DNA of 61,869 bases, the filler included. It is 5 parts of 5 records of this genome, joined end to end, with 100 filler letters (N's around TTAATTAATTAA, not from the genome) between each part and the next. Parts side by side here need not be neighbours in the genome. Positions count along the whole stretch, not along the records: positions 1 to 25,626 come from SRR2962707_1027; 4 more parts are not named here. The stretch is one strand, 5' to 3'. Positions 1 to 18,317 of this stretch are shown here, one piece after another; position 1 is the stretch's first letter, and each line of letters opens with the position of its first letter. A program made the translations under genes and the position numbers. A model generated the notes under the pieces. That model had not been told where the DNA came from. It did not search any database and was given only the letters and a program-made list of their open reading frames with translations.

Positions 1-29
1 CGAGGGTTCGAATCCCTTCCTCTCCGCCA
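1..29 (+). tRNA. 3' end of tRNA-Ser (truncated by window start)
   Basis: T-arm GAGGG-TTCGAAT-CCCTT, acceptor 3' strand CCTCTCC, discriminator G, encoded CCA. Confidence 0.85.
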
Positions 30-36
30 TCCACCC
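13..36 (+). repeat. attL core TCCCTTCCTCTCCGCCATCCACCC
   Basis: Identical to 18294-18317; overlaps tRNA 3' end. Confidence 0.92.
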
Positions 37-83
37 CCTAAGTCATTGAAGTCCCAGAAAGTCCTTGCATTGCAAGGGTTTCA

Positions 84-116
84 GTCACAAATTTGGTGAC
101 AAAACTGGTGACAAAA
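84..116 (+). promoter_or_regulatory. Putative integrase arm-type sites (GTCACAAA, GGTGACAAAA x2)
   Basis: Same motifs recur at 18210-18243 just inside attR. Confidence 0.65.
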
Positions 117-120
117 TCAC

Positions 121-1755
121 ATGGCCAAGGTCAAGCACCTCCACGAAATCAAAGGTCGTTTCGCAGTTCGCGTGGGTGTGCCCGCAGCGTTGCGTGGAAT
201 CGTATTTGGTGGCGATCCCGGTTCTGAGCTCCGCGAATGGCTGGGCACTGATAGAAAAGTTGCAGAGCGTGCAGCGCCGGAAGTAGTCGCGCGGTTCTAT
301 CGGCGCATTGATGAGGCGAAGGCCCAGCTCACCGCAGTTACGCCGACGCTGGGCACCGCAGCAAAGCATCACTACGCCGCTGAGCTAGTTCATGACGACC
401 GGGAGCGCATGAGCGGTGGCACGGCGACGCTCCGGAAGCACACGACACCGCACCGTGCCACCTTGCTCCGCATGCTTGTCAGCGGCGCGCTGCCACCCGA
501 TGAGGCCGAAGCTGTTATGGGCGATGCTGCTGATGCAGTTCTGGCCGTTGGTGCAGCGGACAAGGCGCTGCCGCGCATGGATTTGCTCAAGGCGCTCGCA
601 GAGGCACAGCTAGAGGCCATGGCGGGCGCTGAGCAGCGTGATGCAGGTAAAGTGGCACTTGCGCCCCCAGCCAGCCCTCTGTTGCAGCCAGAGGAGCCCG
701 CAACGCCCGCGCCGGTGAAACCACGCGCCACTGAGCACTCTGGGGAGACGATAGGTGAGGTTCTGGACCTATTCCATCGTGAGCGCACCGCAGGTGGACG
801 CAGCCTATCTGAGAAAACCATGCACGAGCACAAGGTTGCTATCCGCATGTTGCAGGAGTTCTTGGGGCAGGGGATCGCGGCCAGCTCAATCACGACCGCA
901 GACATGCGCAATTACAAGAATGCGCTTATCGAGACGCCAGCGAACTATGCGCTGCGCTTCCCTGGCATGACGTTGCCGAAGGCCATCGCCGCTAACAAGA
1001 AGCTGGCCAAGCCATTCCCCACACTCAACGCCAACACGATCAATGAGAAGTGGCTATCGCACGTCAGCACCATTCTTGGCTGGGCGATGAAGAACGGCTT
1101 TGTCGAATACAACCCGGCACGCGGCATCAAGATCGACCGGGGCAGGGGATATGAAGAACCTAGCCGCGTTGGTTTCAGTGGCGACGACCTCAAGCGCCTG
1201 TTTGGCACGACGCTGTTTGCTGACCCGGCCAAATACGAAACCCAGCAATGGGCGCTGCTCATAGCGCTCTTCACCGGCGCGCGCTCATCGAGCGAGATTG
1301 CGCGCATCAAGCTCAGTGACATCTATCAGGAGCAGGGTGTCTGGGTCTTTGATCTTGAAGAGGCCACCAAGAACGTCCACTCAAAGCGGCTGGTGCCAAT
1401 TCACAAGAAGCTCATTGAGCTGGGTATTCTAGAATACGTTGAGCGCTTGAAAAAGAAGGGCAAGACCAAGTTATTTTGGGATTGGGAGCCCGAAGACAAG
1501 ATCAACCGCTGGTTCCTGCGCACCTACAGGGCCCAGGTCGGCATCACGGATTCCCGCAAGGTCTTCCATAGCTTCCGGCATACGCTCAAGACGGCGCTGG
1601 CACGGCACGGCATCAATCGGGACGTATCGGACCTGATCACCGGCCACAAAGATCAGTCGGTCGGCGGCATCTATATCGGTGATGCTAGTGTCACGATGAT
1701 TGAGGCGATGCGCGACGGGCTGAACCGGTTGGAGTTCAGCCTTCGCAATGACTAG
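121..1755 (+). CDS. int: Tyrosine recombinase/integrase with extended (DUF6538-like) N-terminus
   Basis: ALFTGAR, HSFRH, ITGH and GGIY catalytic motifs; adjacent to att/tRNA. Confidence 0.93.
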   Translation: MAKVKHLHEIKGRFAVRVGVPAALRGIVFGGDPGSELREWLGTDRKVAERAAPEVVARFYRRIDEAKAQLTAVTPTLGTAAKHHYAAELVHDDRERMSGGTATLRKHTTPHRATLLRMLVSGALPPDEAEAVMGDAADAVLAVGAADKALPRMDLLKALAEAQLEAMAGAEQRDAGKVALAPPASPLLQPEEPATPAPVKPRATEHSGETIGEVLDLFHRERTAGGRSLSEKTMHEHKVAIRMLQEFLGQGIAASSITTADMRNYKNALIETPANYALRFPGMTLPKAIAANKKLAKPFPTLNANTINEKWLSHVSTILGWAMKNGFVEYNPARGIKIDRGRGYEEPSRVGFSGDDLKRLFGTTLFADPAKYETQQWALLIALFTGARSSSEIARIKLSDIYQEQGVWVFDLEEATKNVHSKRLVPIHKKLIELGILEYVERLKKKGKTKLFWDWEPEDKINRWFLRTYRAQVGITDSRKVFHSFRHTLKTALARHGINRDVSDLITGHKDQSVGGIYIGDASVTMIEAMRDGLNRLEFSLRND

Positions 1756-2002
1756 CCTGCTGGCGAAACTGGACACTCCCAATGTCGAGAGTAGTATAGT
1801 CCTTTCAATAGTTTAGCAAGATAAGCAGTCAAAAAGTGGGCCAAAGTGGATCACCATCTTGGACTCGGAACGGCACTGTTGCCGGTCATATATGTAGGGC
1901 GCTCGCCCATGGGCAGAGATGTAAGAACTGGACATTTGCAGACTCGCCCCTCTATCTGAGTGCCAAGCGCCATAGGGGCCAACGGTGGGGATTCTGCGCA
2001 AA

Positions 2003-3145
2003 ATGGCCAACAACCGAACTGTGTCGAAGGCAAGAGCCAACAAGCAGGATGAGTTTTACACCCAGCTTAGCGATATCAGCAACGAGCTCAGACACTATAG
2101 ATCGCAGCTTCGTGGAAAGACTATATTATGTAACTGTGACGATCCCTACGAGAGTAATTTCTTTAGATACTTTGCGCTCAACTTCAACGCTCTGGGCCTT
2201 AAAAAGCTGATCGCAACCAGTTACGATAAATCTGCCATTGCCGGTGGGCACCTGCCACTTCTTGACATCGAGGGTTTGAAGCCAGAGGGTCAGCAACCTT
2301 ACGCTATTGAAATCAATGAAGTCCCTGATCATAACGGCGATGGTGCGATTGACCTCAGTGATGTCGAGTATCTTCTTAAGCACGATGCAAATACCGCGCG
2401 GCCATTGAAGGGCGATTCCGAATGGGCGGCGGGCGACTTCCGAAGCTTCGAGTGCGTAAACTATCTATCTCAGGCAGATGTGGTAGTGACCAACCCGCCA
2501 TTCTCTCTATTCCGAGAATACATCGCTCAAATCGCGGCGCACGAAAAAAGCTTCCTAGTTATCGGCAACCAAAACGCGATTGACTACCGCGTCGTGTTTG
2601 ATCTCATCATACAGGACAAGCTTTGGCTCGGCGTCGATAATGGCGGGACGAAGTGGTTCCGGGTGCCCAACGACTACGAGATTGCGACAGAGTCTCGCAT
2701 AAAAGTAGAAGATGGCGTCAAATACTTCAGCATGGGCAGTATCATGTGGTTCACCAACATGGACAACCCCAAACGACACGACACCATCCCCCTCTACAAG
2801 GAATACAGTAAGAAAGAATACCCTACATACGATAATTATGATGCCATCGAGGTAAGCAGAGTCGCAGAAATTCCCATCGACTATGAGGGTGTCATGGGAG
2901 TCCCCATCACGTTCTTGGACAAATACAATCCAGCGCAATTCAAGATAGTGGGAATGTGCGAGAATCGAGATTTGTTCGGGTTGAAGACGCGCCTCTACAC
3001 AACAACGGAATGCCAAGATGCCTATTTCAGCATCTTCGGCAAAAAGGGGACATACGACCTGAACGCGGCTGCCGTGGTTCGTGGTCGAAAAGTCTACAAA
3101 CGGCTTCTCATCAGGAGGAAGAGCTCGAATGGAAATCTCGCATAA
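2003..3145 (+). CDS. EcoRI-family adenine-specific DNA methyltransferase
   Basis: KQDEFYT, ILCNCDDP, GDFRS and VVTNPPFSLFREY (motif IV NPPF). Confidence 0.88.
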   Translation: MANNRTVSKARANKQDEFYTQLSDISNELRHYRSQLRGKTILCNCDDPYESNFFRYFALNFNALGLKKLIATSYDKSAIAGGHLPLLDIEGLKPEGQQPYAIEINEVPDHNGDGAIDLSDVEYLLKHDANTARPLKGDSEWAAGDFRSFECVNYLSQADVVVTNPPFSLFREYIAQIAAHEKSFLVIGNQNAIDYRVVFDLIIQDKLWLGVDNGGTKWFRVPNDYEIATESRIKVEDGVKYFSMGSIMWFTNMDNPKRHDTIPLYKEYSKKEYPTYDNYDAIEVSRVAEIPIDYEGVMGVPITFLDKYNPAQFKIVGMCENRDLFGLKTRLYTTTECQDAYFSIFGKKGTYDLNAAAVVRGRKVYKRLLIRRKSSNGNLA

Positions 3146-4229
3146 GAGCGTCACTGTAGCTGACCTTTTCGAGGGTTACCTCGATAGCGGCGAGCTTGGC
3201 GTTCGAGGCTTCGGCGGTCTTCTGGATATTCGCCCCGCGTATCAGCGCGAGTTCGTTTACGATGACAAACTCAAGAAAGCAGTGATCGGCACGCTTCGCC
3301 GAGATTTCCCACTGAACACAATGTATTGGGCTGTATCTGGTGACGCTTTTGAGTTGATGGATGGCCAGCAGCGGACCATCAGTATTTGCCAGTATGTCAA
3401 CGGCGACTTTGCGGTTGATATTGATAGCTCACCAATGTTCTTCACGAATTTGACCGCCGAACGGCAGAAACAAATTCTCGAATACAAGTTGTCTGTTTAT
3501 GTGTGCGAAGGCTCGGATGGAGACAAACTTGAATGGTTTAAAATAATAAACATAGCGGGTCTAAAACTGGAGCCGCAGGAGCTCCGGAATGCAATTTACA
3601 CTGGCCCCTGGCTTTCAGACGCAAAAAGGTGGTTTTCCAAGACCGGTGCGCCTGCGGTCGCCATAGGCGCCAAGCTTTTGACCGGAACTCCCAATCGACA
3701 GGCCTATTTGGAAACCGCGCTCGACTGGATTTCTAAGGGTCACATCGAACAGTATATGGCCGAGCATCAGCGAGACCCTAACGCCAACCCACTTTGGACC
3801 TACTTCAAAAACGTCATCGATTGGGTGGATTTAACGTTTCCCAAGCATCGCAGGGAAATGAAAGGCGTGTCGTGGGGGCCGCTCTACGACCAGTATGGCA
3901 ATCAGCCGCTTGATCCGGTGGTGTTGGAGGCGCAGGTTAGCCAATTAATGACCGATAATGACGTGACTAAGAAGTCGGGTGTCTACGATTTTGTTTTGAG
4001 TGGAAGGGAAAGCGCCCTCTCGATCCGAGCCTTCGACGACAACATGAAGAGGGAGGCTTACGAAACACAGGCGGGACTTTGCCCTGCTTGTCCCCCTGAT
4101 AGAGGCCCGTGGGCGCTGAGCGAGATGGAGGCAGATCACATCACGCCTTGGAGCAAGAACGGGAAAACGACTGCGGAAAACTGTCAGATGCTCTGCAAAC
4201 CACACAACCGCACCAAGAGCGGGAAATAG
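3129..4229 (+). CDS. DUF262 (GmrSD-like) domain + C-terminal HNH endonuclease
   Basis: PAYQREFVY, MDGQQRT, WFKIIN; HNH EADHITPWSKNG...NCQMLCKPHN; overlaps MTase stop. Confidence 0.88.
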   Translation: MEISHKSVTVADLFEGYLDSGELGVRGFGGLLDIRPAYQREFVYDDKLKKAVIGTLRRDFPLNTMYWAVSGDAFELMDGQQRTISICQYVNGDFAVDIDSSPMFFTNLTAERQKQILEYKLSVYVCEGSDGDKLEWFKIINIAGLKLEPQELRNAIYTGPWLSDAKRWFSKTGAPAVAIGAKLLTGTPNRQAYLETALDWISKGHIEQYMAEHQRDPNANPLWTYFKNVIDWVDLTFPKHRREMKGVSWGPLYDQYGNQPLDPVVLEAQVSQLMTDNDVTKKSGVYDFVLSGRESALSIRAFDDNMKREAYETQAGLCPACPPDRGPWALSEMEADHITPWSKNGKTTAENCQMLCKPHNRTKSGK

Positions 4230-4266: not shown

Positions 4267-5541
4267 TTGTCTGCTTTCGATCTACCGCGAGCAGAGCTAT
4301 TGCCCATCACCGACTACCTTACCGCCGTATTCCGCAAAGCCGATCCTGAGCCCACACCCGAGCCGGTGACGCTCACCGACCCGCTGGCGTCTTGGCTGTT
4401 CGGTGCGATGCCGACCCACTCCAATGTGTCCGTCAATCCAAAGTCGGCGATGCAGGTGCCAGCCGTATCGTCTGCAGTGGAATTGATTGCCGAGGCAGTC
4501 AGCACACTCCCTGTCAAACTCTTCGTGCGTAATGCCAAGGGCAAGGAAGCCGACCCGGCACACCCTGCCTTTCGCCTTGCGCATGATGAGTCCAACGATT
4601 GGACAAGCGCTGCTGAGCTGCGCACCCAGCTCACCCACGATGCCCTGTTGCACGATCATGGCGGCTTCGCACTCGCCAACCGCGTCAATGGCCGCGTTGT
4701 CGAGTTCATCCGCCTCGAGCCCACCAGCGTTGAGCCCAAGACCGACGACCGCACTGGCGAGCCCTACTACCTGATTAAGCAGGGCCGCAAAAATGTGCGC
4801 CATGAATACCGCGACGTGCTGCATATTCAGGCGTTCGGCGGCTCAGCACCCATCAATCGCGCCCGCAACGCAATCGCCCTGGCTATCGATCTTGAGCGCC
4901 ACGCGGCCAAACTGTTTGCCAATGGCGCGCGTCCATCTGGCATCCTGAGTTCTGACAACGACCTAAAGGACACCACACTCAAGAACATCATCGATATGTG
5001 GACCGCCACCCACGGTGGTGCCGCCAATTCTGGCAAGCCCGCCATCCTGCCCAACGGCATGAAGTGGCAGGCACTGGCATTGTCGAGCGTCGACGCTCAG
5101 TTCCTTGAGCAGTGCCGTTTTCAGAATGAACAGATCGCCCGCGCCTTCCGGGTGCCGCCGACCATGCTCTTCGATCTTGAGCGTGGCACGTGGTCCAACA
5201 CCGAGGAAATGCGCCAGCAGTTCCTTGAGCAGACTTTGCGCCCATGGCTGGACGCTTGGGAGTGGGCATACGCCCGCGTGCTGCTCAACCCCGAAGAACG
5301 CACCAGCCGCTTCTTTGAGTTCATCACCGACGACTTGATGACGGTCAACCACGCCGCACGCGCTGAGATTTACGGCAAGTATGTCGCCATGCGCGCCATG
5401 ACACCCAATGAGGTGCGCGCCGGGCTCAACCTTGCACCGTTGCCCGGTGGAGATGATCTGGCCAACCCCTACACCACCAGCGCCGCACCAGCGCAGGCCA
5501 ACAACGACAACCCACCTGATACCCAGAAAGACGCCGCTTAA
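4267..5541 (+). CDS. HK97-family phage portal protein
   Basis: VPAVSSAVELIAEAVSTLP, FANGARPSGIL, QIARAFRVPP, MTPNEVRA; TTG start uncertain. Confidence 0.92.
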   Translation: MSAFDLPRAELLPITDYLTAVFRKADPEPTPEPVTLTDPLASWLFGAMPTHSNVSVNPKSAMQVPAVSSAVELIAEAVSTLPVKLFVRNAKGKEADPAHPAFRLAHDESNDWTSAAELRTQLTHDALLHDHGGFALANRVNGRVVEFIRLEPTSVEPKTDDRTGEPYYLIKQGRKNVRHEYRDVLHIQAFGGSAPINRARNAIALAIDLERHAAKLFANGARPSGILSSDNDLKDTTLKNIIDMWTATHGGAANSGKPAILPNGMKWQALALSSVDAQFLEQCRFQNEQIARAFRVPPTMLFDLERGTWSNTEEMRQQFLEQTLRPWLDAWEWAYARVLLNPEERTSRFFEFITDDLMTVNHAARAEIYGKYVAMRAMTPNEVRAGLNLAPLPGGDDLANPYTTSAAPAQANNDNPPDTQKDAA

Positions 5542-5858
5542 TGCACAAGGCATTCTTTGGTGACCGTGAGCGAGAATTCGCGCTCACGCCGCACCTGATT
5601 CCAGAACTGGAACACAAGACTGGCAAGGGCATTGCCGCACTCATCGCTGGCTTCCGACACGCAACCTATGCCGACATTGCCGAAACCATCCGACTGGGTC
5701 TCATTGGTGCTGGCGAAAGTCCGCAGGAAGCCCACCGGCTGACTGGGATCTATGTGCCCATGCGCGCACTTGGCGAAGCCCATCTGTTGGCCTTGGATAT
5801 TCTCACCGATCTTTGGACCGGCCCGGAAGAGCAGCCCACTGATGAGGCAGCTTCCTGA
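5541..5858 (+). CDS. GTA-gp10-like tail assembly chaperone
   Basis: FFGDREREFAL...ELE, DIAETIRLGLIGAG pattern; TAATG coupling to portal. Confidence 0.65.
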   Translation: MHKAFFGDREREFALTPHLIPELEHKTGKGIAALIAGFRHATYADIAETIRLGLIGAGESPQEAHRLTGIYVPMRALGEAHLLALDILTDLWTGPEEQPTDEAAS

Positions 5859-7369
5859 TGGAAAAACTCGAAATCAAGGCTGAGGTCAGCATCGATGACG
5901 CTGGCACGATCACCGGCATGGCGTGGCCGTTCGGTGATGCCGATAGCGTTGGCGACATCATTGAAAAAGGTGCTTTTGCCCTTCCACCCGCGCTGCCTAT
6001 CGTGATGGAGCATGACCAGTCACAGGTTGTCGGCGTCTGGGAACAGGCCGCCGAGACCGACGCCGGGCTTGAGGTTAAGGGCCGTCTGTTCGTGGAAGGT
6101 ATCGGCCCGGCGCGTAAGGCCCGCGACGACATGCGCAGCAAGCGCATCACCGGCTTGTCCATCGGCTTCAAGGCCAATGGCTTCGACCCGCTACCCAGCG
6201 GCGGCCGCAAGTTCAACGCCCTTACAATCACCGAAATCTCTCTTTGTCGCCGCCCGGTTCACCCCGGCGCGCGGATTACCTCTGTCAAATCCATCAATCA
6301 GGAAAACCGTATGGACCCCGAGACTAACGACGAAAATGCTGCCCTCGAATTGAAGGCAGCAAACGACAACATCGCCAAGCTGACTGCCCGGCTGGACAAG
6401 GTTGAGGCCAAGGCCAATCGCCCTGTAGCAGCCAATGACAACCGGCCCGCGGCAAACGATAATACCGAGCGCAAGGCATTCGCCGACTTCATGCGCAACG
6501 GCGACACCAGCGAAGTGAAGTCGCTGGGTTATGGCTCGCCATCGAGCGGCGGCATTCTGGCACCCGAGCAGGTGGCAACGTCCATTCTGGAAAAGGTCGC
6601 TGAGTTCTCGCCAGTGCGCAGCCTTGCCCAGACCATCAGTATGTCCGGCCCGCTCTTGCAGCTCCCGCGCCTGGTGGATGAAGTTGAGCCAGTTCCGGTA
6701 GCTGAAACCGCTGCCCGCACAGAAGATGAGCCCAGCTTTGACCAGATCGACCTCAAGCCCTTCGAAATGGCCGTCATCGTCCCGGTGACCCGCATCCTGC
6801 TCGAAGATGCCCAGATCGACCTCACCAGCTATCTGAGCAACCACGTTGCCCGTCGCTTCGGCCAGAAAGAGGCCACTTGGTTCGTCAACGGCAATGGCAC
6901 CACCCAGGCAGAAGGTGTTCTCACGTCCACTGCCGTCGCTGATCATGAAGTTGAAGCCATCACTGGCGACGACCTCATTGACCTCTTCTATTCGATCAAG
7001 ACGGCCTATTCGTCCAATGGCGCTTGGCTGATGAACCGCAAGACCATGGCGGTCGTTCGCAAGCTCAAGGACACTGATGGTTCTTACATCTGGGAACGCG
7101 GCATTGCAGGTGGTCAGCCGCCCCAGCTGCTTGGCCGCCCGGTCTATGAAGCGGTGGACATGCCCGACATTGCAGCCGAGGCCACGCCTATCGTCTTTGG
7201 TGATTTCGCAACTGGTTATGCCATCGCAGACCGGACCGGTTTCGAAATCATCCGCGACGACCTGACCGGCGCTGGCAATGGCATTGTGAAGCTGCATGCC
7301 CGCCGTCGCGTGGGTGGCCGCATTATCATGGGTGAGGCACTGACCAAGCTCAAGCTGGCCGCAGCCTAA
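5858..7369 (+). CDS. Fused prohead protease (S78-like) + HK97 major capsid protein
   Basis: N-term GDIIEKGAF, EHD, GLSIGF, EISL; C-term GGILAPE, NGNGT, AWLMN, KLKDTDGSYIW, LLGRPV, IVFGDF. Confidence 0.92.
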   Translation: MEKLEIKAEVSIDDAGTITGMAWPFGDADSVGDIIEKGAFALPPALPIVMEHDQSQVVGVWEQAAETDAGLEVKGRLFVEGIGPARKARDDMRSKRITGLSIGFKANGFDPLPSGGRKFNALTITEISLCRRPVHPGARITSVKSINQENRMDPETNDENAALELKAANDNIAKLTARLDKVEAKANRPVAANDNRPAANDNTERKAFADFMRNGDTSEVKSLGYGSPSSGGILAPEQVATSILEKVAEFSPVRSLAQTISMSGPLLQLPRLVDEVEPVPVAETAARTEDEPSFDQIDLKPFEMAVIVPVTRILLEDAQIDLTSYLSNHVARRFGQKEATWFVNGNGTTQAEGVLTSTAVADHEVEAITGDDLIDLFYSIKTAYSSNGAWLMNRKTMAVVRKLKDTDGSYIWERGIAGGQPPQLLGRPVYEAVDMPDIAAEATPIVFGDFATGYAIADRTGFEIIRDDLTGAGNGIVKLHARRRVGGRIIMGEALTKLKLAAA

Positions 7370-7372: not shown

Positions 7373-7993
7373 ATGAAGCTTGGCGCGGACGGCATATATG
7401 TCGAGTTGGCAGGCGAGGCTTTCGAGCTTCGCCCGTCTCTTCGCGCCAGCATGCGCCTTGTGCGACGGCATGGGCTCACAGGCCTACTTGCAGCCGCACA
7501 AGACTTCAATGTCACCGTCATCATGGACGTGTTGAGGGAAGCCGCCTTCAAGCCCAGCGTGTTGCTGGTAGAGATCGCGGCGATTGGCCTTGGCCCAGTC
7601 CGCAATCGTCTCAGCGGGCCGCTGGCAGACTTCGTCCTGGCTGTTGCTGGCATTGATCCCGACGACGCCGCGCCGAAAGTGCCAGCGCCCGGCAAGCAGA
7701 TGACCCCGCTCGAATACCACACCCGGCTCTTCGCGGTTGCCACTGGCTGGCTGGGCTGGACACCAGAGGAAGCATGGAACGCGACCCCCGCCGAAATCAT
7801 CGCCGCCAAGGCTGGCCGCACGGACCTCATCACCGACGTGTTGAAGGCCGTGTTTGGAAGCCCAGACGCCCCCGGCCAGACCGCCGATCACTACACGACC
7901 GAACAGCTCAGACAGATCGAAGCGGCTGGCCACGACCCGGCGTTCAATCGGGCTGGCCTTCATGCACTCAAGGGTAAGGAACGCGTTACCTGA
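7373..7993 (+). CDS. Putative tail assembly chaperone (G-T-like)
   Basis: N-term LAGEAFELRPSL and C-term GWLGWTPEEAWNATPAEI resembling gpT-type chaperones. Confidence 0.55.
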   Translation: MKLGADGIYVELAGEAFELRPSLRASMRLVRRHGLTGLLAAAQDFNVTVIMDVLREAAFKPSVLLVEIAAIGLGPVRNRLSGPLADFVLAVAGIDPDDAAPKVPAPGKQMTPLEYHTRLFAVATGWLGWTPEEAWNATPAEIIAAKAGRTDLITDVLKAVFGSPDAPGQTADHYTTEQLRQIEAAGHDPAFNRAGLHALKGKERVT

Positions 7994-10659: not shown

Positions 10660-12253
10660 CACCTATCCGGCTTGGATTTACGACGGCACGCCCATCGAAG
10701 ACACCTTCGGTGATGGCGAGCGCGCCGTTGCGTTCTTGCGTTGGCTTAAGCACCCAAAGAGCACGCTGCCCGGCAAGGGCTTTCAGCTTGACCCTTGGCT
10801 TGAGCGCATCGTGCGCCGCATCTATGGGCCGCGCCATCCGAACGGCAACCGCGTCGTCAAGACGGTGGTGCTGTTGTTGCCGCGCGGCAACCGCAAGACC
10901 AGCACCGCAGCCGCCCTGGCGTTGCTGCACACCATCGGCCCAGAACGGGTGCCGCACGGTGAGGCCATCTTTGCCGCCGCCGACCGCAAGCAGGCCAGCA
11001 TCGCCTTTAAGGAAGCGCTGGGCATCGTGCAGGCGCGCAGCCAGGTCAGCAGCGCGGTGAAGGTCTATGATGCCCACAACAGCGCGAAAAAGATCGTCTA
11101 TGCCAAAGAGCGGGTAACGCTTGAAGTGATCTCTGGCGATGCTGGCACCCAGCATGGTCGGACGCCCAATTTTGTGTTGGCCGATGAGTTGCACGTCTGG
11201 CCCAACTTTTACCTCTGGGAAGCCCTGCAGTCCGGCTTGGACAAGTCCGACAATACTCTCATGGTCGTGGCGACGACTGCCGGGCGCGGGCAAGAAAACG
11301 TTGCCTGGGAGCAGATTGAAGACGCCCGCAAGGTGGCGCGCGGTGAGGTTGATGACCCATCCATCCTGCCCATCTTGTTCGAAGCCGACCGCGACGCCGA
11401 TTGGCGCGATGAGGCGGTTTGGTATCTGACCAATCCCGGCCTTGCTCATGGCTATCCCAGCCTTGACGGCTTCCGCCGCGCCGCCGCCAAGGCGGAGCGC
11501 AGCATGCGTGAACGCCAGAGCTTCAAGCAGCTCAAGCTCAATATCTGGCTGGACCATTCCACCGACCCGTTCATTGACATGGACGTCTATGACCGCTGCG
11601 CTGGTGACGTCGAGCCGATGGACAATGCGCCGTGCTGGGTTGGCGTAGACATGTCCACCACCAGCGATCTCACCGCCGTTGTTGCTGCCTTCCGTGATGA
11701 AGACGGCCTCATCAGCGTGCAGCCGCATTTCTTTGTGCCCGGCGATGTGCTGCGCGATCGGGCTGACCGCGATGGCGTGCCCTATCCGGAATGGGCTGAG
11801 CAGGGCTTTCTCACCGCAACGCCCGGCAACGTCATCGATTTCGGTGCCGTCACGGAATATTTGGCTGAGCTGTGCGCCCGCTATGACGTGCAGGAACTGA
11901 ACTTCGATCCGCACTATGCCCAGCCCGTCATGGCGCCGCTACTTGCCGATGGCCTGCCGGTGCTGACCATGCGGCAGGGATGGGTAACGCAGTCGCCGGC
12001 GCTCAATGAGCTTGAGCGCGTCATTGTTGGCGGGCAGTTCCGCCATGGCGGGCACCCGCTGTTGCGCTGGTGCTTCTCCAACGTCGCCATCCACACCGAC
12101 AGCGCAGGCAACCGCACGATGCACAAGGGCAAGAGCACCGGGCGCATTGATGGTGCCGTTGCCACGTGGATGGCCGTCTCCCGCGCTGCTGCCAATGACA
12201 ACACCCCGTCCGCCTGGGACGATCCCGAATTTATGCAGAAGGTATATGGATGA
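10634..12253 (+). CDS. terL: Terminase large subunit (cos-type, HK97-like)
   Basis: Walker A PRGNRKT, Walker B VLADELH, TTAG, GVDMSTTSDLTA, GRIDGAVA. Confidence 0.92.
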   Translation: MTTTPSPSSTYPAWIYDGTPIEDTFGDGERAVAFLRWLKHPKSTLPGKGFQLDPWLERIVRRIYGPRHPNGNRVVKTVVLLLPRGNRKTSTAAALALLHTIGPERVPHGEAIFAAADRKQASIAFKEALGIVQARSQVSSAVKVYDAHNSAKKIVYAKERVTLEVISGDAGTQHGRTPNFVLADELHVWPNFYLWEALQSGLDKSDNTLMVVATTAGRGQENVAWEQIEDARKVARGEVDDPSILPILFEADRDADWRDEAVWYLTNPGLAHGYPSLDGFRRAAAKAERSMRERQSFKQLKLNIWLDHSTDPFIDMDVYDRCAGDVEPMDNAPCWVGVDMSTTSDLTAVVAAFRDEDGLISVQPHFFVPGDVLRDRADRDGVPYPEWAEQGFLTATPGNVIDFGAVTEYLAELCARYDVQELNFDPHYAQPVMAPLLADGLPVLTMRQGWVTQSPALNELERVIVGGQFRHGGHPLLRWCFSNVAIHTDSAGNRTMHKGKSTGRIDGAVATWMAVSRAAANDNTPSAWDDPEFMQKVYG

Positions 12254-14340
12254 ACGACCAGATTTTGGCCGTCTCAATTGAGGCGCGCATCAACAAGCTC
12301 GAAAAAGAAATGAAGAAGGCCAGCACCATTGTTGGCCGGAACTTCGACGGCATGGAGAAACGCAGCAAGCGCGCTGCCTCCGGCATCGAAAAGCACTTCG
12401 CTGGCATCGGTGATCGTATCGGCGGGATCGGTAAGAATATCGCAGCCGGGTTCATTGGTGGCCTTGTCGCGGGTGGTGTTACCGGCATCGCAGCCAAGTT
12501 TGGCGATGTCGCCAAGTCGGTTGCCCAGATCGGCGATGAGGCCAAGCGAGCCGGGCTTGGTGTCGAAGAGTTTCAAGAGCTAAAATATGTCGCTGAGCAG
12601 AACCGCATCGGCGTGGAGTCGCTGACGGACGGCATCAAGGAACTCAACTTGCGCGCCGATGAGTTTGTTGTGACCGGTAAGGGCAGTGCAGCTGAGGCAT
12701 TCACCCGGCTTGGTTATGATGCCGAGACCCTCAAGGAAAAGCTCAAGAACCCATCGGCTCTGTTCACCGAAATCATCGGCAAGCTGGGCAAGTTGGATAA
12801 AGCAGCACAAATCCGTATCGCCGATGAGATCTTCGGCGGCACGGGCGGTGAGCGCTTCGTGCAGCTTATCGAGCAGGGCGAAGCCGCGTTGAACCGAACC
12901 CGGCAGGAAGCGCATGCCCTTGGCCTTGTGATGAGCGCCGAGACAATCGCCAAAGCAGACGAGCTGGACCGGAAGTTCAACGCCATCGCCAACACGGTGG
13001 GCACCAAACTCAAGCAGGCCATTGTTGACGCTACCGGTGCGCTGGTGGACTTCATGAACAGCCTGCCGAAGTCTGACACTGAAGTCCTGGGCGATATGCA
13101 GGCTCGTGTTGCTGGTGTGCAAACTGAGCTTGAAGAGCTCACCCGGCACGCTGACGCTGCGTTCCCAGCACTGACCGGTAAGCTCTATGACCTCGTTGCG
13201 GGTTTCCTTGCTGGTAAGGAGAGCGCCGAAAACGCAAAGAATGCCATTCTGGATATGGCGCGTGCCGATCCTGACTTCGCGCCCATCGCTGGCGACATTA
13301 ATGGCCTGATTTCCCTGTTCACACTGCTCACCGGACAAGCACGTGAGGCCGCTGCAGCAATCGCAGCTGCTACCACTGACCCCGTAGGCACTATGCCTAG
13401 CTTCGGTGAAATCGGCACCACGTTCGCGCCGCCAGTTCCCGCCGCGCCGCTAAACACCGGTGGGCGTTCGGCTGGTGCTATGCGCGAGGAACGCGACGCG
13501 GCGAAGGAATTGATTGCCGAACTTGAGGCAGAGCTACGCGCCATAAGCATGTCCGAAGTAGAGAAACGGGTTGATGCTGAGCTGCGTAAGGCTGGTGCCA
13601 GCGCCACCGACGCGCAGAAGCAGTCAATCCGTGAACTGGTGATGGTCATTGAGACCGAAAGTGCCGCCATGGACCAGATGCAATCTGCCATGGAGAACGC
13701 CAAGGGTATGGCTAAAGACTTCTTGGGCGGTTTGCTGGGCGACCTGCGCAGCGGTGTTGATGGTGCCACGGCGCTCGCCAACGCTTTTGGCCGTCTCGCC
13801 GACCGCCTGCTCGATATGGCGCTCGACGGGCTGATCAACAGCCTGTTTTCGAACATGATGGGTGGCGCTGGCGGTGGTCTGCTTGGTGGTCTGTTTGGCT
13901 TTAGCCAGGGTGGCGTGGTGAAGGCCGCGACCGGTGGCTACATTCGAGGGCCCGGCACCGGCACCAGCGACAGCATTCCGGCCCGGCTGAGCGACGGTGA
14001 GTTTGTCGTCAACGCTGCTGCGACGAAGCGAAACTTGGACATCCTGCACGCCATCAATCGCGGTGAGGTTTCGGCCTTTGCCACTGGTGGCCTTGTCGGT
14101 GATGGTCCGGCGATCCGCGCGGCGAATGACAATATTGGGCACACCAATGACAACGCCGCGCCGGTGGTGACGATCAGCGCGCCGATCACCGTGAACGGTT
14201 CATCTGGGACGCCCGAGCAGAACGATGACCTCGCCAAGAAGATGCGCCGCGAAATGGAGAGTGGTATGCGATCAATCGTGACCGATGAGCTGCGTAAGCA
14301 GTCCAAGGTTGGAAACACACTCAACACCCGGAGCCGGTGA
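12250..14340 (+). CDS. Tail tape measure-like protein (696 aa)
   Basis: Long Ala/Gly-rich helical ORF with C-terminal ATGGYIRGPGTGTSDSIPARLSDGEFVVNA motif. Confidence 0.8.
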   Translation: MNDQILAVSIEARINKLEKEMKKASTIVGRNFDGMEKRSKRAASGIEKHFAGIGDRIGGIGKNIAAGFIGGLVAGGVTGIAAKFGDVAKSVAQIGDEAKRAGLGVEEFQELKYVAEQNRIGVESLTDGIKELNLRADEFVVTGKGSAAEAFTRLGYDAETLKEKLKNPSALFTEIIGKLGKLDKAAQIRIADEIFGGTGGERFVQLIEQGEAALNRTRQEAHALGLVMSAETIAKADELDRKFNAIANTVGTKLKQAIVDATGALVDFMNSLPKSDTEVLGDMQARVAGVQTELEELTRHADAAFPALTGKLYDLVAGFLAGKESAENAKNAILDMARADPDFAPIAGDINGLISLFTLLTGQAREAAAAIAAATTDPVGTMPSFGEIGTTFAPPVPAAPLNTGGRSAGAMREERDAAKELIAELEAELRAISMSEVEKRVDAELRKAGASATDAQKQSIRELVMVIETESAAMDQMQSAMENAKGMAKDFLGGLLGDLRSGVDGATALANAFGRLADRLLDMALDGLINSLFSNMMGGAGGGLLGGLFGFSQGGVVKAATGGYIRGPGTGTSDSIPARLSDGEFVVNAAATKRNLDILHAINRGEVSAFATGGLVGDGPAIRAANDNIGHTNDNAAPVVTISAPITVNGSSGTPEQNDDLAKKMRREMESGMRSIVTDELRKQSKVGNTLNTRSR

Positions 14341-14658: not shown

Positions 14659-15090
14659 ATGACTGCCGCCCCCGTTACCGTCCGGCTTGACCCCCGCCGC
14701 CTTGAACAGCTCAAGGCTATTGCCACCGCGACCAGCTCGACCAGCGCCGGTGTCATCGCCCAGTTCATCCGCGACAAGATTGAACAGGGTGTTATCCCGC
14801 AAGATATCCCCGGCATCGTGGTGCATAAGGTGGGTGAGATTGTCCAAATCGACCTGAGCAAGGGCTACGGCAAGGCGTATTCACTTGCCGCTGCCTTGCA
14901 ATTGGCTAGCACCATTCGCAGCGTTGTTGAAGGTGGTGAGCCCTCGGCGGTAAACTTGGACTTTGGCTTCGCTGTGCTCAAGCAGGGCACCGGCTTCAAG
15001 ATCGCCGCGCCGTTCCCCGGGCCGGAAGTGAGCTTCCCCGGCGATCTCGCGATTGATCTTGCTGACCTGATCGAAGCGGCCGCAAAATAG
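14659..15090 (+). CDS. Ribbon-helix-helix (CopG-like) DNA-binding protein with extra C-terminal domain
   Basis: PVTVRLDPRRLEQLKAIA...SAGVIAQFI; GGAG SD upstream. Confidence 0.6.
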   Translation: MTAAPVTVRLDPRRLEQLKAIATATSSTSAGVIAQFIRDKIEQGVIPQDIPGIVVHKVGEIVQIDLSKGYGKAYSLAAALQLASTIRSVVEGGEPSAVNLDFGFAVLKQGTGFKIAAPFPGPEVSFPGDLAIDLADLIEAAAK

Positions 15091-15122: not shown

Positions 15123-15158
15123 GAATCTCTGCCATTGCCTTGAGAGGCGCCTAAAAAT

Positions 15159-15749
15159 ATGACAAACAAAAAAGACTGTCAACATATAACGAACAATGAA
15201 GGATCACCAGCCGATGAGGCTTTAGCGCTTGAACTGCTTGCCGACTTGGACATTGGCGAGAGTGCTCCCGTGGCGAATTTCATAGCGACCACCCCAGCAT
15301 TGCGGGCCGTCGCAGCGAAGCAGAACGAACGGACGGTCGGTAAGGGCGCAAAGCAGTCAAAACCCTCCTCGAATCCTTCAGCAATTAAAGAGCGTGAGCG
15401 CTATGCGCAGCATAAGGGTGGCGACGTCCGCACCTACTCCTGGAACAACATTGAGCCGCGGCGAATGTTTCCATACGAGTCCGAAGAAGACTACCAGCGC
15501 CGGTATAAGCGCGAGTATGCCCAGATCACGCGCGGGGTCACAGCTGAAGACATTGAAGCCAACGCACTCAATAGGGAGCTGACGACCCAAGAAGAGCGGA
15601 AGCAGGATAAGGCGAAGGCCGAGGCAAATAGGCGCGCCAACATTCCCACGTCTGAGCAGTCCGCCGCGCGCAAAGCTCGCCGCCATCGGGCGAAGGAACG
15701 CGCCAATGAGGAAGCTACAGCTACCCTCGCTGCCAGGAGCATAGTCTGA
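15159..15749 (+). CDS. Hypothetical basic, helical protein
   Basis: 196-aa ORF with GAGG SD; no recognised motif. Confidence 0.55.
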   Translation: MTNKKDCQHITNNEGSPADEALALELLADLDIGESAPVANFIATTPALRAVAAKQNERTVGKGAKQSKPSSNPSAIKERERYAQHKGGDVRTYSWNNIEPRRMFPYESEEDYQRRYKREYAQITRGVTAEDIEANALNRELTTQEERKQDKAKAEANRRANIPTSEQSAARKARRHRAKERANEEATATLAARSIV

Positions 15750-15881: not shown

Positions 15882-16097
15882 ATGACCGATCAACCCACCT
15901 ACCTGAGCAACACCACCTGGGTGGAACTACTCGACACCCTCAATATCAACGAAGCCCTCAGGATCCAGATGGACGTCAAGCTCTGCCCGTTCACCGGCGT
16001 GGTCGAGGAATATACGATGGCGGATCAGTTGGGCGGGATGCTCAACGTCTGGCCTGAGAAGTGGCAAAGCATGATAGAGGAGGGCAGGGCAGACTAA
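15882..16097 (+). CDS. Small hypothetical protein
   Basis: 71-aa ORF with GGAG SD. Confidence 0.5.
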   Translation: MTDQPTYLSNTTWVELLDTLNINEALRIQMDVKLCPFTGVVEEYTMADQLGGMLNVWPEKWQSMIEEGRAD

Positions 16098-17201: not shown

Positions 17202-17255
17202 CCCAACCCAACTGAATACCGCCTCGCGACCTTGTTGGTTAGGCGGCGCACACAT

Positions 17256-17280
17256 AAAAAAGCTGGGCATTGAGCCCAGC
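17256..17280 (-). terminator. Intrinsic terminator for the minus-strand cassette
   Basis: GCTGGGC/GCCCAGC stem followed by T6 on minus strand. Confidence 0.7.
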
Positions 17281-17285
17281 CTTCA

Positions 17286-17489
17286 TCATTTCAATTTTAA
17301 AGCAAAGTCGACAGTGCCATGACTTATGCTGCCTTTGTAAGCGCCAGCGCGCCGGCGCATTTCCGGAGACAGTTTTAGCCCAGTCATCGGGCGGCTTTTA
17401 CCGTAGGCGGGCTCAGGCTCAGGCAATGGCTTGCCGGAGTGCGTAAGCCGATACGACGCCTCCTTAACCCATTTCGCTAACTGTTCCAT
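17286..17489 (-). CDS. Small basic hypothetical protein (67 aa)
   Basis: ATG 2 nt after upstream stop, AAGGTG SD. Confidence 0.55.
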   Translation of the reverse strand: MEQLAKWVKEASYRLTHSGKPLPEPEPAYGKSRPMTGLKLSPEMRRRAGAYKGSISHGTVDFALKLK

Positions 17490-17491
17490 TT

Positions 17492-17995
17492 TCACACCTT
17501 TAAGCACCAGTAAGAGGGGCTATCACGGACATCTACCCGCTTAAAGCCATATACCTCTTCATAGTGAACAACTAATTCTTCGTTCTTAGGTTGCAAGTGC
17601 AACTCGTTCTTACCGCGCACTTGCGCATAATTTGCGCACGTATCAAGTAAAATTTCAAGGCGTCCGCCGCGAAAAGGACAATCCGTCGCTCTGTCGCCTT
17701 CAACCACTTGAACGTAAACAGCTCGGTTCTTTGTGGTAGCCAGACACATAGCAACTAATCTCTCGCCTGCCCACATGGCAATAGTGAGGCGATCTGGTTC
17801 GGAGGAAAATTTGCGATTGATGTCTGTCCAGTCATAGTGACCACCTTTCCAGCTTTGGCTGGCCTCATAGGCGCGACCACTCCATTCGGTCAGTGTAAAT
17901 GTCATTCCATCATAAGGGCACAACTTCTCAACCGTGGCCTGACGCGCCTCGTGGCAAAGTTGGATGTAACGCTGTTTATGTGATGCGAGTGACAC
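17492..17995 (-). CDS. GNAT-fold acetyltransferase-like protein
   Basis: YDW, IAMWAGERLVAMCLA, VYVQVVEG, PFRG, ELHLQPKNEELVVHYEEVYGF; start GTG 17995 or ATG 18025. Confidence 0.6.
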   Translation of the reverse strand: MSLASHKQRYIQLCHEARQATVEKLCPYDGMTFTLTEWSGRAYEASQSWKGGHYDWTDINRKFSSEPDRLTIAMWAGERLVAMCLATTKNRAVYVQVVEGDRATDCPFRGGRLEILLDTCANYAQVRGKNELHLQPKNEELVVHYEEVYGFKRVDVRDSPSYWCLKV

Positions 17996-18209
17996 TAAAA
18001 GTCCGCCGGAAGATGTAGACGGCATGATAAACTGCCCGCACCAAGTCAACATCTCGTGAGGCGAACTTTCAAATTCTTGTGGACAGCGCAGGGATTTCGT
18101 CAAAGCGAATAATATTGAAGCTCTTCTATGAGCTCTACCCGCTTCTGCAACGTGCCCTGAGGTATCTGCCCACAGCGGGCGGTCATGCTGGACTTGCAGT
18201 GGCCCACTG

Positions 18210-18275
18210 GGTGACAAAAATGCAGTCACAAAAGGTGACAAAATCGACCGATTGTGACGGTCTAAGTTATTGATT
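18210..18275. promoter_or_regulatory. Right-end arm-type sites and IHF-like site
   Basis: GGTGACAAAA x2 plus GTCACAAAA; minus-strand AATCAATAACTTA fits IHF consensus WATCAANNNNTTR. Confidence 0.6.
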
Positions 18276-18293
18276 TTATTGGAAGTTGCCGTT

Positions 18294-18317
18294 TCCCTTC
18301 CTCTCCGCCATCCACCC
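18294..18317 (+). repeat. attR core (duplicated tRNA 3' end)
   Basis: Identical to 13-36. Confidence 0.92.

Follow-up and report, generated by a model that had tools for sequence, protein, structure and literature searches.

A probable capsid-forming phage satellite of a Devosia-like alphaproteobacterium that encodes its own tape measure

The 18.3-kb island that opens the window (the whole 61.9-kb stretch of DNA analysed here) is probably a capsid-forming phage satellite integrated in a tRNA-Ser gene of a Devosia-like alphaproteobacterium, and it would use its own tape measure in chimeric tails assembled together with a helper. Genes for a tail tube, a tail tip and lysis are all missing from the element, so it most likely depends on a helper phage.

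Results

The first-pass annotation of this DNA had proposed a complete element bounded by attachment sites, which was borne out by one exact pair of 24-nt direct repeats enclosing the island with a spacing of 18,281 (Table 1); the remainder of the window is chromosomal. The tRNA at the left edge was not called by ARAGORN because it is truncated there. In a relative (L030) whose integrase is 80.6% identical to that of the window, the tRNA-Ser(GCT) just upstream of int is complete and shares the 3' end and leader. All four exact copies of GGTGACAAAA in the window adjoin the att sites, and the repeats on the left are likely, if putative, integrase arm sites. In addition, a contig from run X1 shows the tRNA letters of window positions 1-12 fused straight to position 18294 onward, the pattern of an empty site. 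In a metagenome of the viral fraction, 8 of 12 contigs were at least 99% alike, with the listed pieces spread over the element, at a depth of about 2 and with contamination by host DNA possible. One relative (L116; 16,501 bp) has a 99-bp terminal repeat and a break within TerL, and is therefore a circular assembly.

Table 1. Predicted features of the element, in window coordinates
Position	Strand	Feature	Evidence
1..31	+	tRNA-Ser 3' end (cut by window edge), integration target	same 3' end and leader as complete tRNA-Ser(GCT) of L030
13..36	+	attL core, 24-nt direct repeat	family D9, 100% identical to 18294-18317
72..118	+	GGTGACAAAA repeats, 2 exact copies at 95 and 107	repeat search of window
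121..1755	+	tyrosine integrase	PF00589 (Phage_integrase) 2.5e-12; phrog_1 2.2e-36; weak N-terminal DUF6538
1985..3145	+	cargo, EcoRI-type adenine methyltransferase	PF13651 3.9e-131; MTase_II 2.7e-111
3081..4229	+	cargo, restriction enzyme (GmrSD_N + HNH)	Pfam; PADLOC REase_II 1.8e-125
4267..5541	+	portal	PF04860 1.2e-91
5541..5858	+	tail assembly chaperone, RcGTA g10 type (Phage_TAC_11)	PF11836 1.6e-16, above cut-off
5858..7369	+	prohead protease-major capsid fusion, HK97 type	PF04586 (Peptidase_S78) 5-146; PF05065 (Phage_capsid) 231-499
7373..7993	+	second chaperone-like protein, family marker	Phage_TAC_6 motif aa 117-146, 2.4e-5 (weak)
7993..8349	+	HNH endonuclease, packaging accessory	phrog_2323 1.2e-27
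8346..8834	+	basic protein, C-terminal helix-turn-helix	HTH_17 0.0067, weak
8831..9121	+	head-tail adaptor Ad1 (gp6-like; Phage_connect_1)	Pfam, PHROGs
9109..9546	+	Neck1 / HK97 gp10-like	phrog_5 3.6e-15; TIGR01725
9543..9953	+	tail terminator/completion protein (Tail_completion_gp17)	PF11367 3.5e-13; phrog_176
9902..10267	+	head closure Hc1 (Phage_HCP)	PF05521 1.3e-16
10249..10659	+	small terminase TerS (Terminase_4)	PF05119 2.5e-22
10634..12253	+	large terminase TerL	Pfam; phrog_9 3.5e-132
12250..14340	+	tape measure, 696 aa (PhageMin_Tail)	phrog_10574 2e-142
14659..15090	+	conserved DNA-binding-like protein: two N-terminal helices, then PUR-like beta/alpha domain	AF2 pLDDT 79.7
15159..15749	+	highly charged protein, low complexity	no match in Pfam, PHROGs, NCBIfam
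15882..16097	+	small conserved ORF	homologues in L004, L028, L032
16263..17201	+	DUF3102-like protein (regulatory region)	phrog_15609 1e-11; Atlas DUF3102 clusters 0.94
17492..18052	-	cargo, acetyltransferase-like protein (lead only)	Atlas 0.96, clusters named N-acetyltransferase; phrog_4350
18199..18245	+	GGTGACAAAA repeats, 2 exact copies at 18210 and 18234	repeat search of window
18294..18317	+	attR core	100% identical to 13-36

The gene content listed in that annotation (portal, protease-capsid, connector, closure, gp10, terminator, TerS/TerL/HNH, tape measure and chaperones) was reproduced, the second chaperone through a weak Phage_TAC_6 match. By sequence, the portal and the protease-capsid fusion give the element an HK97-type head of its own, HNH, TerS and TerL form its own cos-type packaging set, and Ad1, Hc1, Neck1 and the tail terminator make up a full neck of four proteins; Hc1 is likely to start at an ATG near 9953. 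TerS and TerL sit between the neck genes and the tape measure. No close full phage was found, with a best TerL match of 37% among 50,697 phage records and a capsid match of at most 36%. The integrase scores 20.5 bits for DUF6538 at its N-terminus against a Pfam cut-off of 27, and its counterparts in relatives lie above that cut-off. The type II restriction-modification cargo at 1985-4229 had not been mentioned in the first-pass annotation.

The tape measure is a bona fide one. It shares 38% identity over 494 aa with its counterpart in Sinorhizobium phage phi2LM21, where the gene comes downstream of those for tube and chaperone, and the tape measure in PDB 8zdo matches its residues 560-608. In Martelella radicis, the tape measure of a relative is 46% and 53% identical, in two regions, to the one encoded by a lambda-like prophage of that genome. 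Of the two chaperones, the first is of the type of RcGTA g10, which has been named "tail chaperone 1" (PMC11409702); hhalign against PF06199 tubes gave this product a probability of 0.2%. The second, which marks the family, was modelled with AF2 at pLDDT 86 as an N-terminal hairpin followed by helices throughout, and a PDB fold search with this model gave no match. In tube-bearing relatives such as L045 and L059, its gene lies directly 3' of the tube gene.

The tape measure and chaperones could instead serve a satellite as weapons against helper tail assembly, with finished helper tails being taken as in classical cf-PICIs. Interference with tail assembly by satellites or islands is on record (PMC11364771), Rta of PLE11 has been described (PMC12987554), and the classical cf-PICI EcCIEDL933 depends on the helper tape measure and major tail protein, as far as the accessible parts of these sources go. 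This reading is nevertheless unlikely, as a terminator and Neck1 make sense only if the element finishes the head-proximal end of the tail itself, relatives have full-length tape measures (658-950 aa) that are conserved over their whole extent, and the PLE satellite tape measure is described as structural in the accessible text of PMC12987554.

Searches of Pfam, PHROGs and NCBIfam gave zero matches in the element for a major tail protein, Dit/hub/RBP, holin/endolysin, primase/helicase or CI-type repressor, in agreement with the earlier annotation, and recognised no alpA-type regulator or replication gene. A hidden tube was also looked for. An HMM built on the tubes of related elements found nothing in the window (best E = 14), hhalign of element proteins against tubes gave probabilities below 1%, and the AF2 models of the ORFs starting at 7373 and 14659 were helical or PUR-like. 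The latter product is not tube-like; its best Foldseek matches, both weak, were hydroquinone 1,2-dioxygenase (E 0.02) and PUR-alpha (E 0.04). On the strength of these searches and models, none of the window ORFs appears to be a tail tube. That the island is a complete autonomous mini-phage, with tube, tip and lysis proteins among its unannotated ORFs, is scarcely credible: for five ORFs at 14.3-17.2 kb and the one at 8346 no family could be assigned with confidence, but they are short and mostly not conserved in relatives, the two ORFs modelled are helical or PUR-like, one ORF is DUF3102-like and one is charged and of low complexity, and about 3 kb is too little for tube, Dit, hub, fibre, holin and endolysin. 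A DUF3102 protein is also present in the circular relative.

A TerL search yielded 19 loci. The rearranged gene order, tape measure included, repeats in every near-complete relative examined, which upholds the view of a satellite-like element over that of a random deletion derivative, and the identical order with tape measure was found in 5/5 further Devosiaceae elements. Att-bounded relatives of 16-18.5 kb with this order occur in Devosiaceae, Martelella, Methylopila and Cypionkella; six relatives are flanked by repeats of 17-47 nt at a spacing of 15.9-18.5 kb, and the five scanned all have a tRNA-Gln at the repeat. The marker chaperone is present in 12 of 201 Devosiaceae genomes and encoded on at least 526 IMG/VR stretches. 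Among IMG/VR loci of at least 13 kb, portal, both chaperones, capsid fusion, HNH, terminator, Hc1 and TerL were found in 49/49, and a window-type tape measure in 41.

A lambda-like tube gene is present in 17/104 related loci, but a full tip or lysis module was found in none of the relatives examined. The lack of a tail tube is therefore not a rule of the family. With this tube gene and with a gpM-like gene in 14/104 loci, the lineage could be read as one of decaying phages, the island being the inert remnant of a lambda/HK97-like temperate phage that has lost its tube, tip, lysis and replication genes. Truncation is visible in one relative (L002), which has another TerL and a fragment of a portal alongside, and the failure of Pfam, PHROGs and NCBIfam to recognise a replication gene also fits such decay. 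However, all ORFs are intact, the compact layout is repeated in four host families with differing integrases and att sites, the whole head, neck and packaging set is kept in every one of the larger IMG/VR relatives, and one relative is a 16.5-kb circular assembly. Further, dN/dS lies well below 1 both in head and in tail genes. The tape measure gives 0.07-0.29, the chaperones 0.23-0.39, Neck1 0.12-0.35, the portal 0.17-0.25 and the terminator 0.17-0.28 in five pairs (0.38-0.60 in the two most divergent pairs), values that are rough because dS often exceeds 1. Purifying selection acts on the tail-related genes, and decay is an improbable account of this element.

The suggestion that a gene transfer agent (GTA) might act as helper was not sustained. 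Both chaperone families (PF11836, PF09550) were first defined on RcGTA-type clusters, and a PF06199 tube gene lies directly beside a PF11836 gene elsewhere in 4/5 host genomes. The tube retained by relatives is, however, lambda gpV-like (PF16460, PF08813, PF16461) and not PF06199, and one host genome (G001) showed no PF06199 gene. An integrase, att sites, tRNA targets that vary and a sequence-specific packaging set also speak against a GTA, and the element is very unlikely to be either a domesticated, GTA-like producer of particles or a satellite of the RcGTA-like agent in its host.

Discussion

For a satellite with its own tape measure, we infer a chimeric-tail mechanism in which the element would contribute tape measure, chaperones and terminator, and the helper tube and tip. 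Induction by a siphovirus helper, or co-infection with one, would lead to excision of the element at the 24-nt att core, and the 18.3-kb genome would be packed into the element's own small heads. The tape measure, held by its chaperones, would nucleate on the helper tip complex, helper tube protein would polymerise around it to give a chimeric tail with a predicted length of about 110 nm (696 residues x about 1.6 A), and the tube would be capped by the satellite terminator and Neck1. The head-tail interface would then be wholly satellite-encoded, which would reserve these tails for satellite heads, and lysis would be supplied by the helper. A lambda-like tube type was found elsewhere in just 1/5 Devosiaceae host genomes, in a prophage whose tape measure is only weakly alike, and no helper was found.

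The closest known systems include the cf-PICIs, with EcCIEDL933 as prototype (Alqurainy et al., bioRxiv 10.1101/2022.09.08.507074; He et al., bioRxiv 10.1101/2025.02.11.637232). To the extent covered by the accessible parts of these papers, the element resembles them in being an integrase-bearing island in the range of about 10-18 kb, with morphogenetic genes ahead of terS-terL, defence cargo at the island edges and neither lysis genes nor a complete tail. In contrast, it is set apart by gene content, with no alpA or pri-rep recognised, an integrase of another type (weak N-terminal DUF6538), and the addition of Neck1, tail terminator, two chaperones and a tape measure, which EcCIEDL933 requires from its helper. 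Its hosts are Alphaproteobacteria, whereas the published searches, in the same parts, named Enterobacteriaceae, Pasteurellaceae, Orbaceae and Firmicutes.

In gene content, the element is also like the Vibrio cholerae PLEs, which have their own tape measure and tail assembly chaperone and no tube of their own; the PLE tape measure enters virions, sets tail length and is needed for transfer (PMC12987554, Nature 2026). According to the accessible portion of that paper, PLEs take the helper capsid protein with the scaffold TcaP, whereas the element makes its own head and neck; the element adds a terminator, whereas some PLEs add a baseplate hub; and the PLE helper is a lytic myovirus, whereas that of the element is presumably a siphovirus. 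The Mycolicibacterium EPIPs are likewise small satellites, for which tape measure, adaptor, stopper, TerS and altered tail length have been reported (preprint PMC12822802). Going by the accessible text of that preprint, they are unrelated to the element by host and layout, with an actinobacterial host, a serine integrase and no TerL or portal listed. The same text is inconsistent on EPIP capsid genes. Finally, phi2LM21-type alphaproteobacterial siphophages and RcGTA-type clusters share with the element a homologous tape measure, g10-type chaperones and HK97-type head and neck families, but their tube, tip, fibre and lysis genes are present and canonically ordered, whereas the element lacks these and places TerS/TerL between neck genes and tape measure.

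The first-pass annotation had suggested a distinct alphaproteobacterial satellite class. The recurrence of a family in Alphaproteobacteria supports this in part, while the concept has precedents in PLEs and in cf-PICIs for which putative tmp genes are figured, and satellite tape measures with chimeric tails are already published for PLEs (PMC12987554, accessible parts). The element is a member of a large, little-described alphaproteobacterial branch of an already known kind of satellite.

Boundaries and gene content of the integrated element

The element is bounded by an exact 24-nt direct repeat whose two copies lie 18,281 bp apart, in agreement with the first-pass annotation, which had claimed that both att sites are present. 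The first letters of the window lie within the T-arm and acceptor end of a tRNA, and as this gene is cut by the window edge, ARAGORN made no tRNA call in the window; an Rfam scan of positions 1-20000 found no family. A related Devosiaceae element (L030), with an integrase 80.6% identical to that of the window, contains, ahead of a near-identical leader and integrase start, a full-length tRNA-Ser(GCT) whose 3' end is the same as that of the window. It follows that the left repeat is tRNA-Ser's own end and that the right one is the partial copy that integration left behind. The motif GGTGACAAAA occurs in four exact copies in the 61.9-kb window, all in one orientation and within approximately 100 nt of the two repeats, and these copies look like integrase arm sites.

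Pfam and PHROGs searches reproduced the gene list of the first-pass annotation in full, with an integrase/site-specific recombinase at one end of the element. The left-to-right order of the genes is given in the table.

Features of the element, of the rest of the window and of remnants near related loci, with positions along the window unless a locus is named
Position	Feature	Remark
13-36	Left repeat	
	Tyrosine integrase	
1985-4229	EcoRI-type methylase and GmrSD_N+HNH protein	Type II restriction-modification pair (REase_II score), between integrase and portal
	Portal	
5541-5858	Phage_TAC_11 protein	105 aa; g10-type chaperone
	Peptidase_S78-Phage_capsid fusion	
7373-7993	206-aa protein	Weak Phage_TAC_6 motif; second chaperone-like gene and family marker
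	HNH	
	Basic protein	Weak helix-turn-helix
	Adaptor Ad1	
	Neck1	HK97 gp10-like
	Terminator	Tail_completion_gp17
	Head closure Hc1	
	TerS	
	TerL	
	Tape measure	696 aa
14359-14544	ORF after the tape measure	Tried as a gpM remnant and dropped, no hit
14659-15090	Conserved ORF 3' of the tape measure	
15159	ORF	Charged, low complexity
16263	ORF	Similar to phage DUF3102 proteins
	Small ORFs at the right end	About 3 kb
	Acetyltransferase-like ORF	After the small ORFs, opposite strand; a lead only
18294-18317	Right repeat	
from 18381	Host genes (MipA, SIS, GntR, others)	Outside the element
25679-32179	2166-aa ORF	Minus strand; no Pfam match; lower G+C (0.49-0.55)
34970-35431	Fragment with helicase C-terminal domain only	Near the 2166-aa ORF
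L001 37-1176; L113 17611-19463	Two-gene remnant	ClpP-like protease and Phage_capsid protein
L002 11572-15170	Second TerL, truncated portal and Hc1 gene	After the TerL at which the element stops

By homology, the element encodes all that is needed for the head, DNA packaging and the head-tail joint, together with the three protein classes that organize a siphovirus tail from the inside, namely a tape measure, chaperones and a terminator. These last form a partial tail module; genes for lysis and a full tail module are absent. Of the pri-rep-type replication module of cf-PICIs, Pfam, PHROGs and NCBIfam found no primase, helicase or Rep domain in the element, some ORFs of which have no confident family assignment, and a distant relative (L013) carries an AAA_25 protein. 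The search for an alpA-type regulator returned a weak HTH_17 match alone, at 8346 (E 0.0067); a circular relative (L116, a 16,501-bp IMG/VR record) encodes a clear HTH_17 protein. On the naming of the chaperones, the Pfam text for PF11836 reads "tail tube protein", at odds with the passages of the RcGTA paper that call g10 "tail chaperone 1" and g10.5 "tail chaperone 2" (PMC11409702).

The GmrSD_N+HNH protein is a type II restriction enzyme by PADLOC score (1.8e-125). In a contig from one sequencing run (X1), the integrase end is joined to the portal start and 861 other letters replace the 2.5-kb restriction-modification cargo, and this slot is therefore a cargo hot spot.

A genuine tape measure and no recognizable tube

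As judged from sequence similarity, the tape measure is a genuine one. It is 38% identical over 494 residues to the tape measure of Sinorhizobium phage phi2LM21, whose gene comes after those for a TP901-1-type major tail protein and a chaperone and before those for tip and fibre, and its residues 560-608 match a solved tape measure (8zdo). In Martelella radicis, the tape measures of the related element (L006) and of a lambda-like prophage in the same genome share 46% identity in the N-terminal domain and 53% in the C-terminal region. In four related loci (L004, L028, L029, L032), the N-terminal third of the tape measure is swapped for another type (TMP_3 in L004), with the C-terminal two-thirds still 52-55% identical to those of the window's tape measure (12250-14340).

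The first-pass annotation recognized no tail tube, and this held in structure models, profile comparisons and a search of the window with a tube HMM built from related elements, for which the best score was E = 14. Of the ORFs it had singled out for a hidden tube or Rep fold (7373, 8346, 15159 and 16263), 15159 is a charged, low-complexity ORF and 16263 is DUF3102-like. The 206-aa 7373 protein, modelled from 37 homologues (pLDDT 86), has a short N-terminal hairpin followed by helices and no beta-sandwich. Foldseek of this model against the PDB gave no match at E <= 0.001, and VIA-align against 48,161 chains gave no convincing fold match, the best (Z 5.7) covering helix-loop-helix pieces only. 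In the model of the conserved ORF 3' of the tape measure (pLDDT 79.7), two helices at the N-terminus precede a beta-beta-beta-beta-alpha repeat domain; its top Foldseek matches, both weak, are to hydroquinone 1,2-dioxygenase (E 0.02) and PUR-alpha (E 0.04). Profile comparisons of this family, the 7373 family and the g10-type chaperone family with local PF06199 tubes stayed below 1% probability throughout, and PDB sequence searches with the 7373 family, the g10-type chaperone and the 16263 and 17492 ORFs returned nothing meaningful. Moreover, the unassigned ORFs total approximately 3 kb and are thus too small for a set of tube, tip and lysis genes. From these profiles and predicted structures, we conclude that no gene in the window encodes a tube.

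A family of elements with a shared gene order

A TerL search of species-representative genomes yielded 19 loci, in which gene order was compared as far as each contig extends. The window shares an unusual order with loci from Devosia (L001, L004), Cypionkella (L015, L019), Methylopila (L005) and Jiella (L003) and with two contig-end fragments (L017, L018): portal, chaperone, capsid fusion, chaperone, HNH, an unnamed gene, Ad1, Neck1, terminator, Hc1, TerS, TerL and tape measure. The M. radicis element has the same head, neck, packaging and tape-measure order with no match for either chaperone, and all five Devosiaceae elements retrieved through the 7373 marker have the window order. Six relatives are bounded by repeats of 17-47 nt lying 15.9-18.5 kb apart, with the integrase at the left or right end, and a tRNA-Gln lies at the repeat in all five bounded relatives that were scanned. 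TerL itself is mosaic, with 43-46% identity in L029-L031 versus 82-92% in others with similar neighboring genes.

The 7373 marker was found in 12 of 201 sampled Devosiaceae genomes and was absent from 400 other sampled Alphaproteobacteria genomes (the one positive among 401 being the center genome itself). In IMG/VR, at least 526 stretches encode it. Among the 49 best of these loci, each with at least 13 kb of sequence (records of 13.4-27.4 kb), portal, both chaperones, capsid fusion, HNH, terminator, Hc1 and TerL were present in every one, TerS in 45, Neck1 in 44 and Ad1 in 43. The tape measure is of the window type in 41, with the TMP_3 or TMP_2 type in others. These counts rest on tblastn and HMM searches; counts from ORF clusters are lower bounds, because the greedy ORF caller often took antisense ORFs in GC-rich DNA. 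The IMG/VR records behind L033-L111 (13-27 kb) have CheckV completeness of 19-48%, and most are classed as proviruses.

If the element were a simple deletion derivative, its close relatives should be full prophages, and this is not what was observed. No deposited phage has a TerL more than 37% or a capsid more than 36% identical to that of the element, and a megablast search of 50,697 phage records with 10 kb of the structural module found nothing. No tip or lysis module was seen in the relatives examined, and Pfam and PHROGs gave no tube, tip or lysis match in the accessory regions of eight relatives, which instead hold defense cargo such as AIPR and AbiJ. Two phage records, MW091529.1 (18,183 bp) and PQ793804.1 (16,506 bp), encode a protease and capsid 32-34% identical to those of the window and may themselves be capsid-forming satellites.

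Remnants were also seen beside some loci. The two-gene ClpP/capsid remnant lies approximately 2.5 kb left of the Devosia naphthalenivorans element (L001), amid ordinary chromosomal genes. The Devosia rhodophyticola locus (L002) stops after TerL, and the genes that follow are a tandem remnant of another element.

Graded tail-gene content across the family

A cluster of 150-245-aa proteins in related loci matches the lambda-type tube families PF16460, PF08813 and PF16461, some with a C-terminal Ig domain; in two loci (L045, L059) the tube gene is flanked by the capsid fusion and the 7373-type chaperone. Searching with an HMM of the cluster recovered a tube in 17 of 104 loci (the M. radicis element and 16 of 80 IMG/VR loci), including 8 of the 49 larger IMG/VR loci, and none in the window, all nine Devosiaceae loci or both Cypionkella loci. 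The window lacks a gpM-like minor tail gene (PF05939), which 14 of 104 loci have, L030 among them. Both counts are approximate, because the loci include fragments as well as duplicates of a single genome. Lack of a tube is thus not general across the family.

A quick portal tree of 83 rows (rooted arbitrarily, with SH-aLRT as its only support measure) splits into two halves. One contains all 12 rows with a tube, intermingled with rows that lack one; the other, devoid of tube-bearing rows, contains the window, in a well-supported 12-row clade of Devosiaceae elements and four IMG/VR contigs. Six Martelella loci (L007-L012) are sister to the tube-bearing L006 in this tree. They are head-and-packaging-only elements (portal, protease, capsid, HNH, Ad1, TerS, TerL) without tape measure, chaperones and most neck genes, with up to three copies per assembly and, in L007, a cargo of SMODS/CBASS-like and reverse transcriptase genes.

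One reading, which we hold tentatively and with rather less than even confidence, is that these loci form a large alphaproteobacterial satellite lineage whose living members record the stepwise reduction of a lambda-like siphophage to a tail-stealing satellite. Tip and lysis genes would have been lost in every member examined, gpM-like and tube genes would persist in some only, and tape measure, chaperones and terminator would be retained under selection in most. The Martelella sister elements would have shed even these three and come to resemble classical cf-PICIs. Tails would be chimeras built on helper tips, with a helper tube wherever the satellite has none of its own, and the swapped tape-measure N-terminal third and mosaic TerL may mark helper switches.

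Indications of activity

The circular relative carries the same module and tape measure, a gpM-like gene and DUF3102 and HTH_17 proteins. It is classed in IMG/VR as having direct terminal repeats, and as its 99-bp terminal repeat is exact and the break lies inside TerL, it is a circular assembly. The ORFs scanned include no integrase, and this relative may represent a version of the satellite that does not integrate or resembles a plasmid. In another X1 contig, the twelve tRNA letters of window positions 1-12 directly precede position 18294, as in an unoccupied site. In a run labelled as a viral metagenome (X4), 8 of 12 contigs are at least 99% alike to the element; the eight pieces listed (152-300 nt, depth of about 2, spread between 3643 and 17740) only hint at packaging, because they were compared with the element alone. 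None of the sequencing runs listed contained over 0.11 of the sampled words, and no RNA run was among them. Together, the circular relative, the empty site and the virome pieces would be only indirect hints of the helper-induced excision, small capsids and transfer with helper tails that mark cf-PICIs.

Pairwise dN/dS against seven Devosiaceae elements was below 1 for every gene tested, with the estimates rough and dS often saturated: 0.07-0.29 for the tape measure, 0.23-0.39 for the chaperones, 0.12-0.35 for Neck1, 0.17-0.25 for the portal, and for the terminator 0.17-0.28 in five pairs and 0.38-0.60 in the two most divergent.

Comparison with known systems and the search for a helper

As an att-bounded island with its own head, neck and packaging genes, the element is, on the evidence of its genes, a real satellite of the capsid-forming kind, as had been proposed. 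Its repeat spacing and the sizes of its relatives fit the approximately 10-18 kb of cf-PICIs, with which it also shares an integrase at one end and the lack of genes for lysis and of a full tail module. This likeness is one of size and gene content; passages of Alqurainy et al. describe cf-PICI packaging genes as a single family 50-90% similar to EcCIEDL933, place the morphogenetic genes of Proteobacteria cf-PICIs before hnh-terS-terL, and report that EcCIEDL933 depends on the helper's major tail and tape measure genes. An intact temperate siphophage has tube, tip/receptor-binding, lysis, replication and repressor genes, a set that the element does not carry. RcGTA-like agents have a complete tail (tube, distal tail, hub, megatron) and no integrase or att site, whereas the element has both of the latter, and no tube or tip homologue was found in it by Pfam, PHROGs or the tube HMM.

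The PLEs offer a parallel. In passages of a recent paper (Nature 2026, PMC12987554), these satellites are reported to carry genes for a tape measure and a chaperone and to form chimeric tails whose length follows the satellite tape measure, and tmp mutants lose transfer. The element matches this set, with tape measure and chaperone present and tube absent, by homology only. A figure legend in the same paper (Extended Data Fig. 10b) refers to "a sampling of cf-PICIs encoding putative tmp genes", and part of the EPIP preprint (PMC12822802) describes Mycolicibacterium satellites bearing a tape measure. Among the paper titles listed in literature searches, none describes an alphaproteobacterial family of this kind, and marine VEIMEs may overlap with it. 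The suggestion of a distinct satellite class is upheld as an alphaproteobacterial variant and not as a new category, because a private tail ruler has published precedent in the PLE passages (PMC12987554).

The search for a helper, in the left flank of L001 and in host genomes, identified none. That flank contains only the ClpP-like protease and capsid remnant. PF06199 tube genes lie beside PF11836 in 4 of 5 host genomes, and the lambda-like tube type was found elsewhere in the genome in 1 of 5 Devosiaceae hosts, in a prophage whose tape measure is just 30-33% alike over 129-165 aa. A gene transfer agent had also been put forward as a possible lender of tube and tip; it is weakly disfavored, as the tubes of relatives are lambda-type.

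The lambda/SPP1 tail pathway is textbook knowledge, and the following steps are inferred from it and from the PLE precedent. The tape measure, held by its chaperones, would dock on the tip complex of the helper, and the helper's tube protein would polymerize around it. The satellite terminator and Neck1 would close the tube, and the tail would join satellite heads via an interface encoded wholly by the satellite. Lysis would have to come from the helper. By analogy with these systems, a private tail ruler is a plausible reading of the element.

Implications

The long-held view was that satellites steal tails ready-made. In the passages cited, the PLE work describes one satellite family that rebuilds the tail from the inside (PMC12987554). 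The element suggests that such a strategy is widespread among environmental Alphaproteobacteria and taken further there, with head, neck, terminator, ruler and chaperones all satellite-owned and only tube, tip and lysis borrowed. These elements also carry defense cargo, with restriction-modification in the window and AIPR, AbiJ, CBASS-like and reverse transcriptase genes in relatives. Many 14-20 kb IMG/VR "proviruses" may be whole satellites, in which case CheckV completeness wrongly marks them as partial. Of the new points, the most interesting is the graded tail-gene content of the family, with members that have a tube, a gpM-like gene, neither of these, or no tail gene at all. This natural series can be used to ask which of the tail interfaces a satellite has to own if it is to switch helpers, and how phages give rise to satellites.
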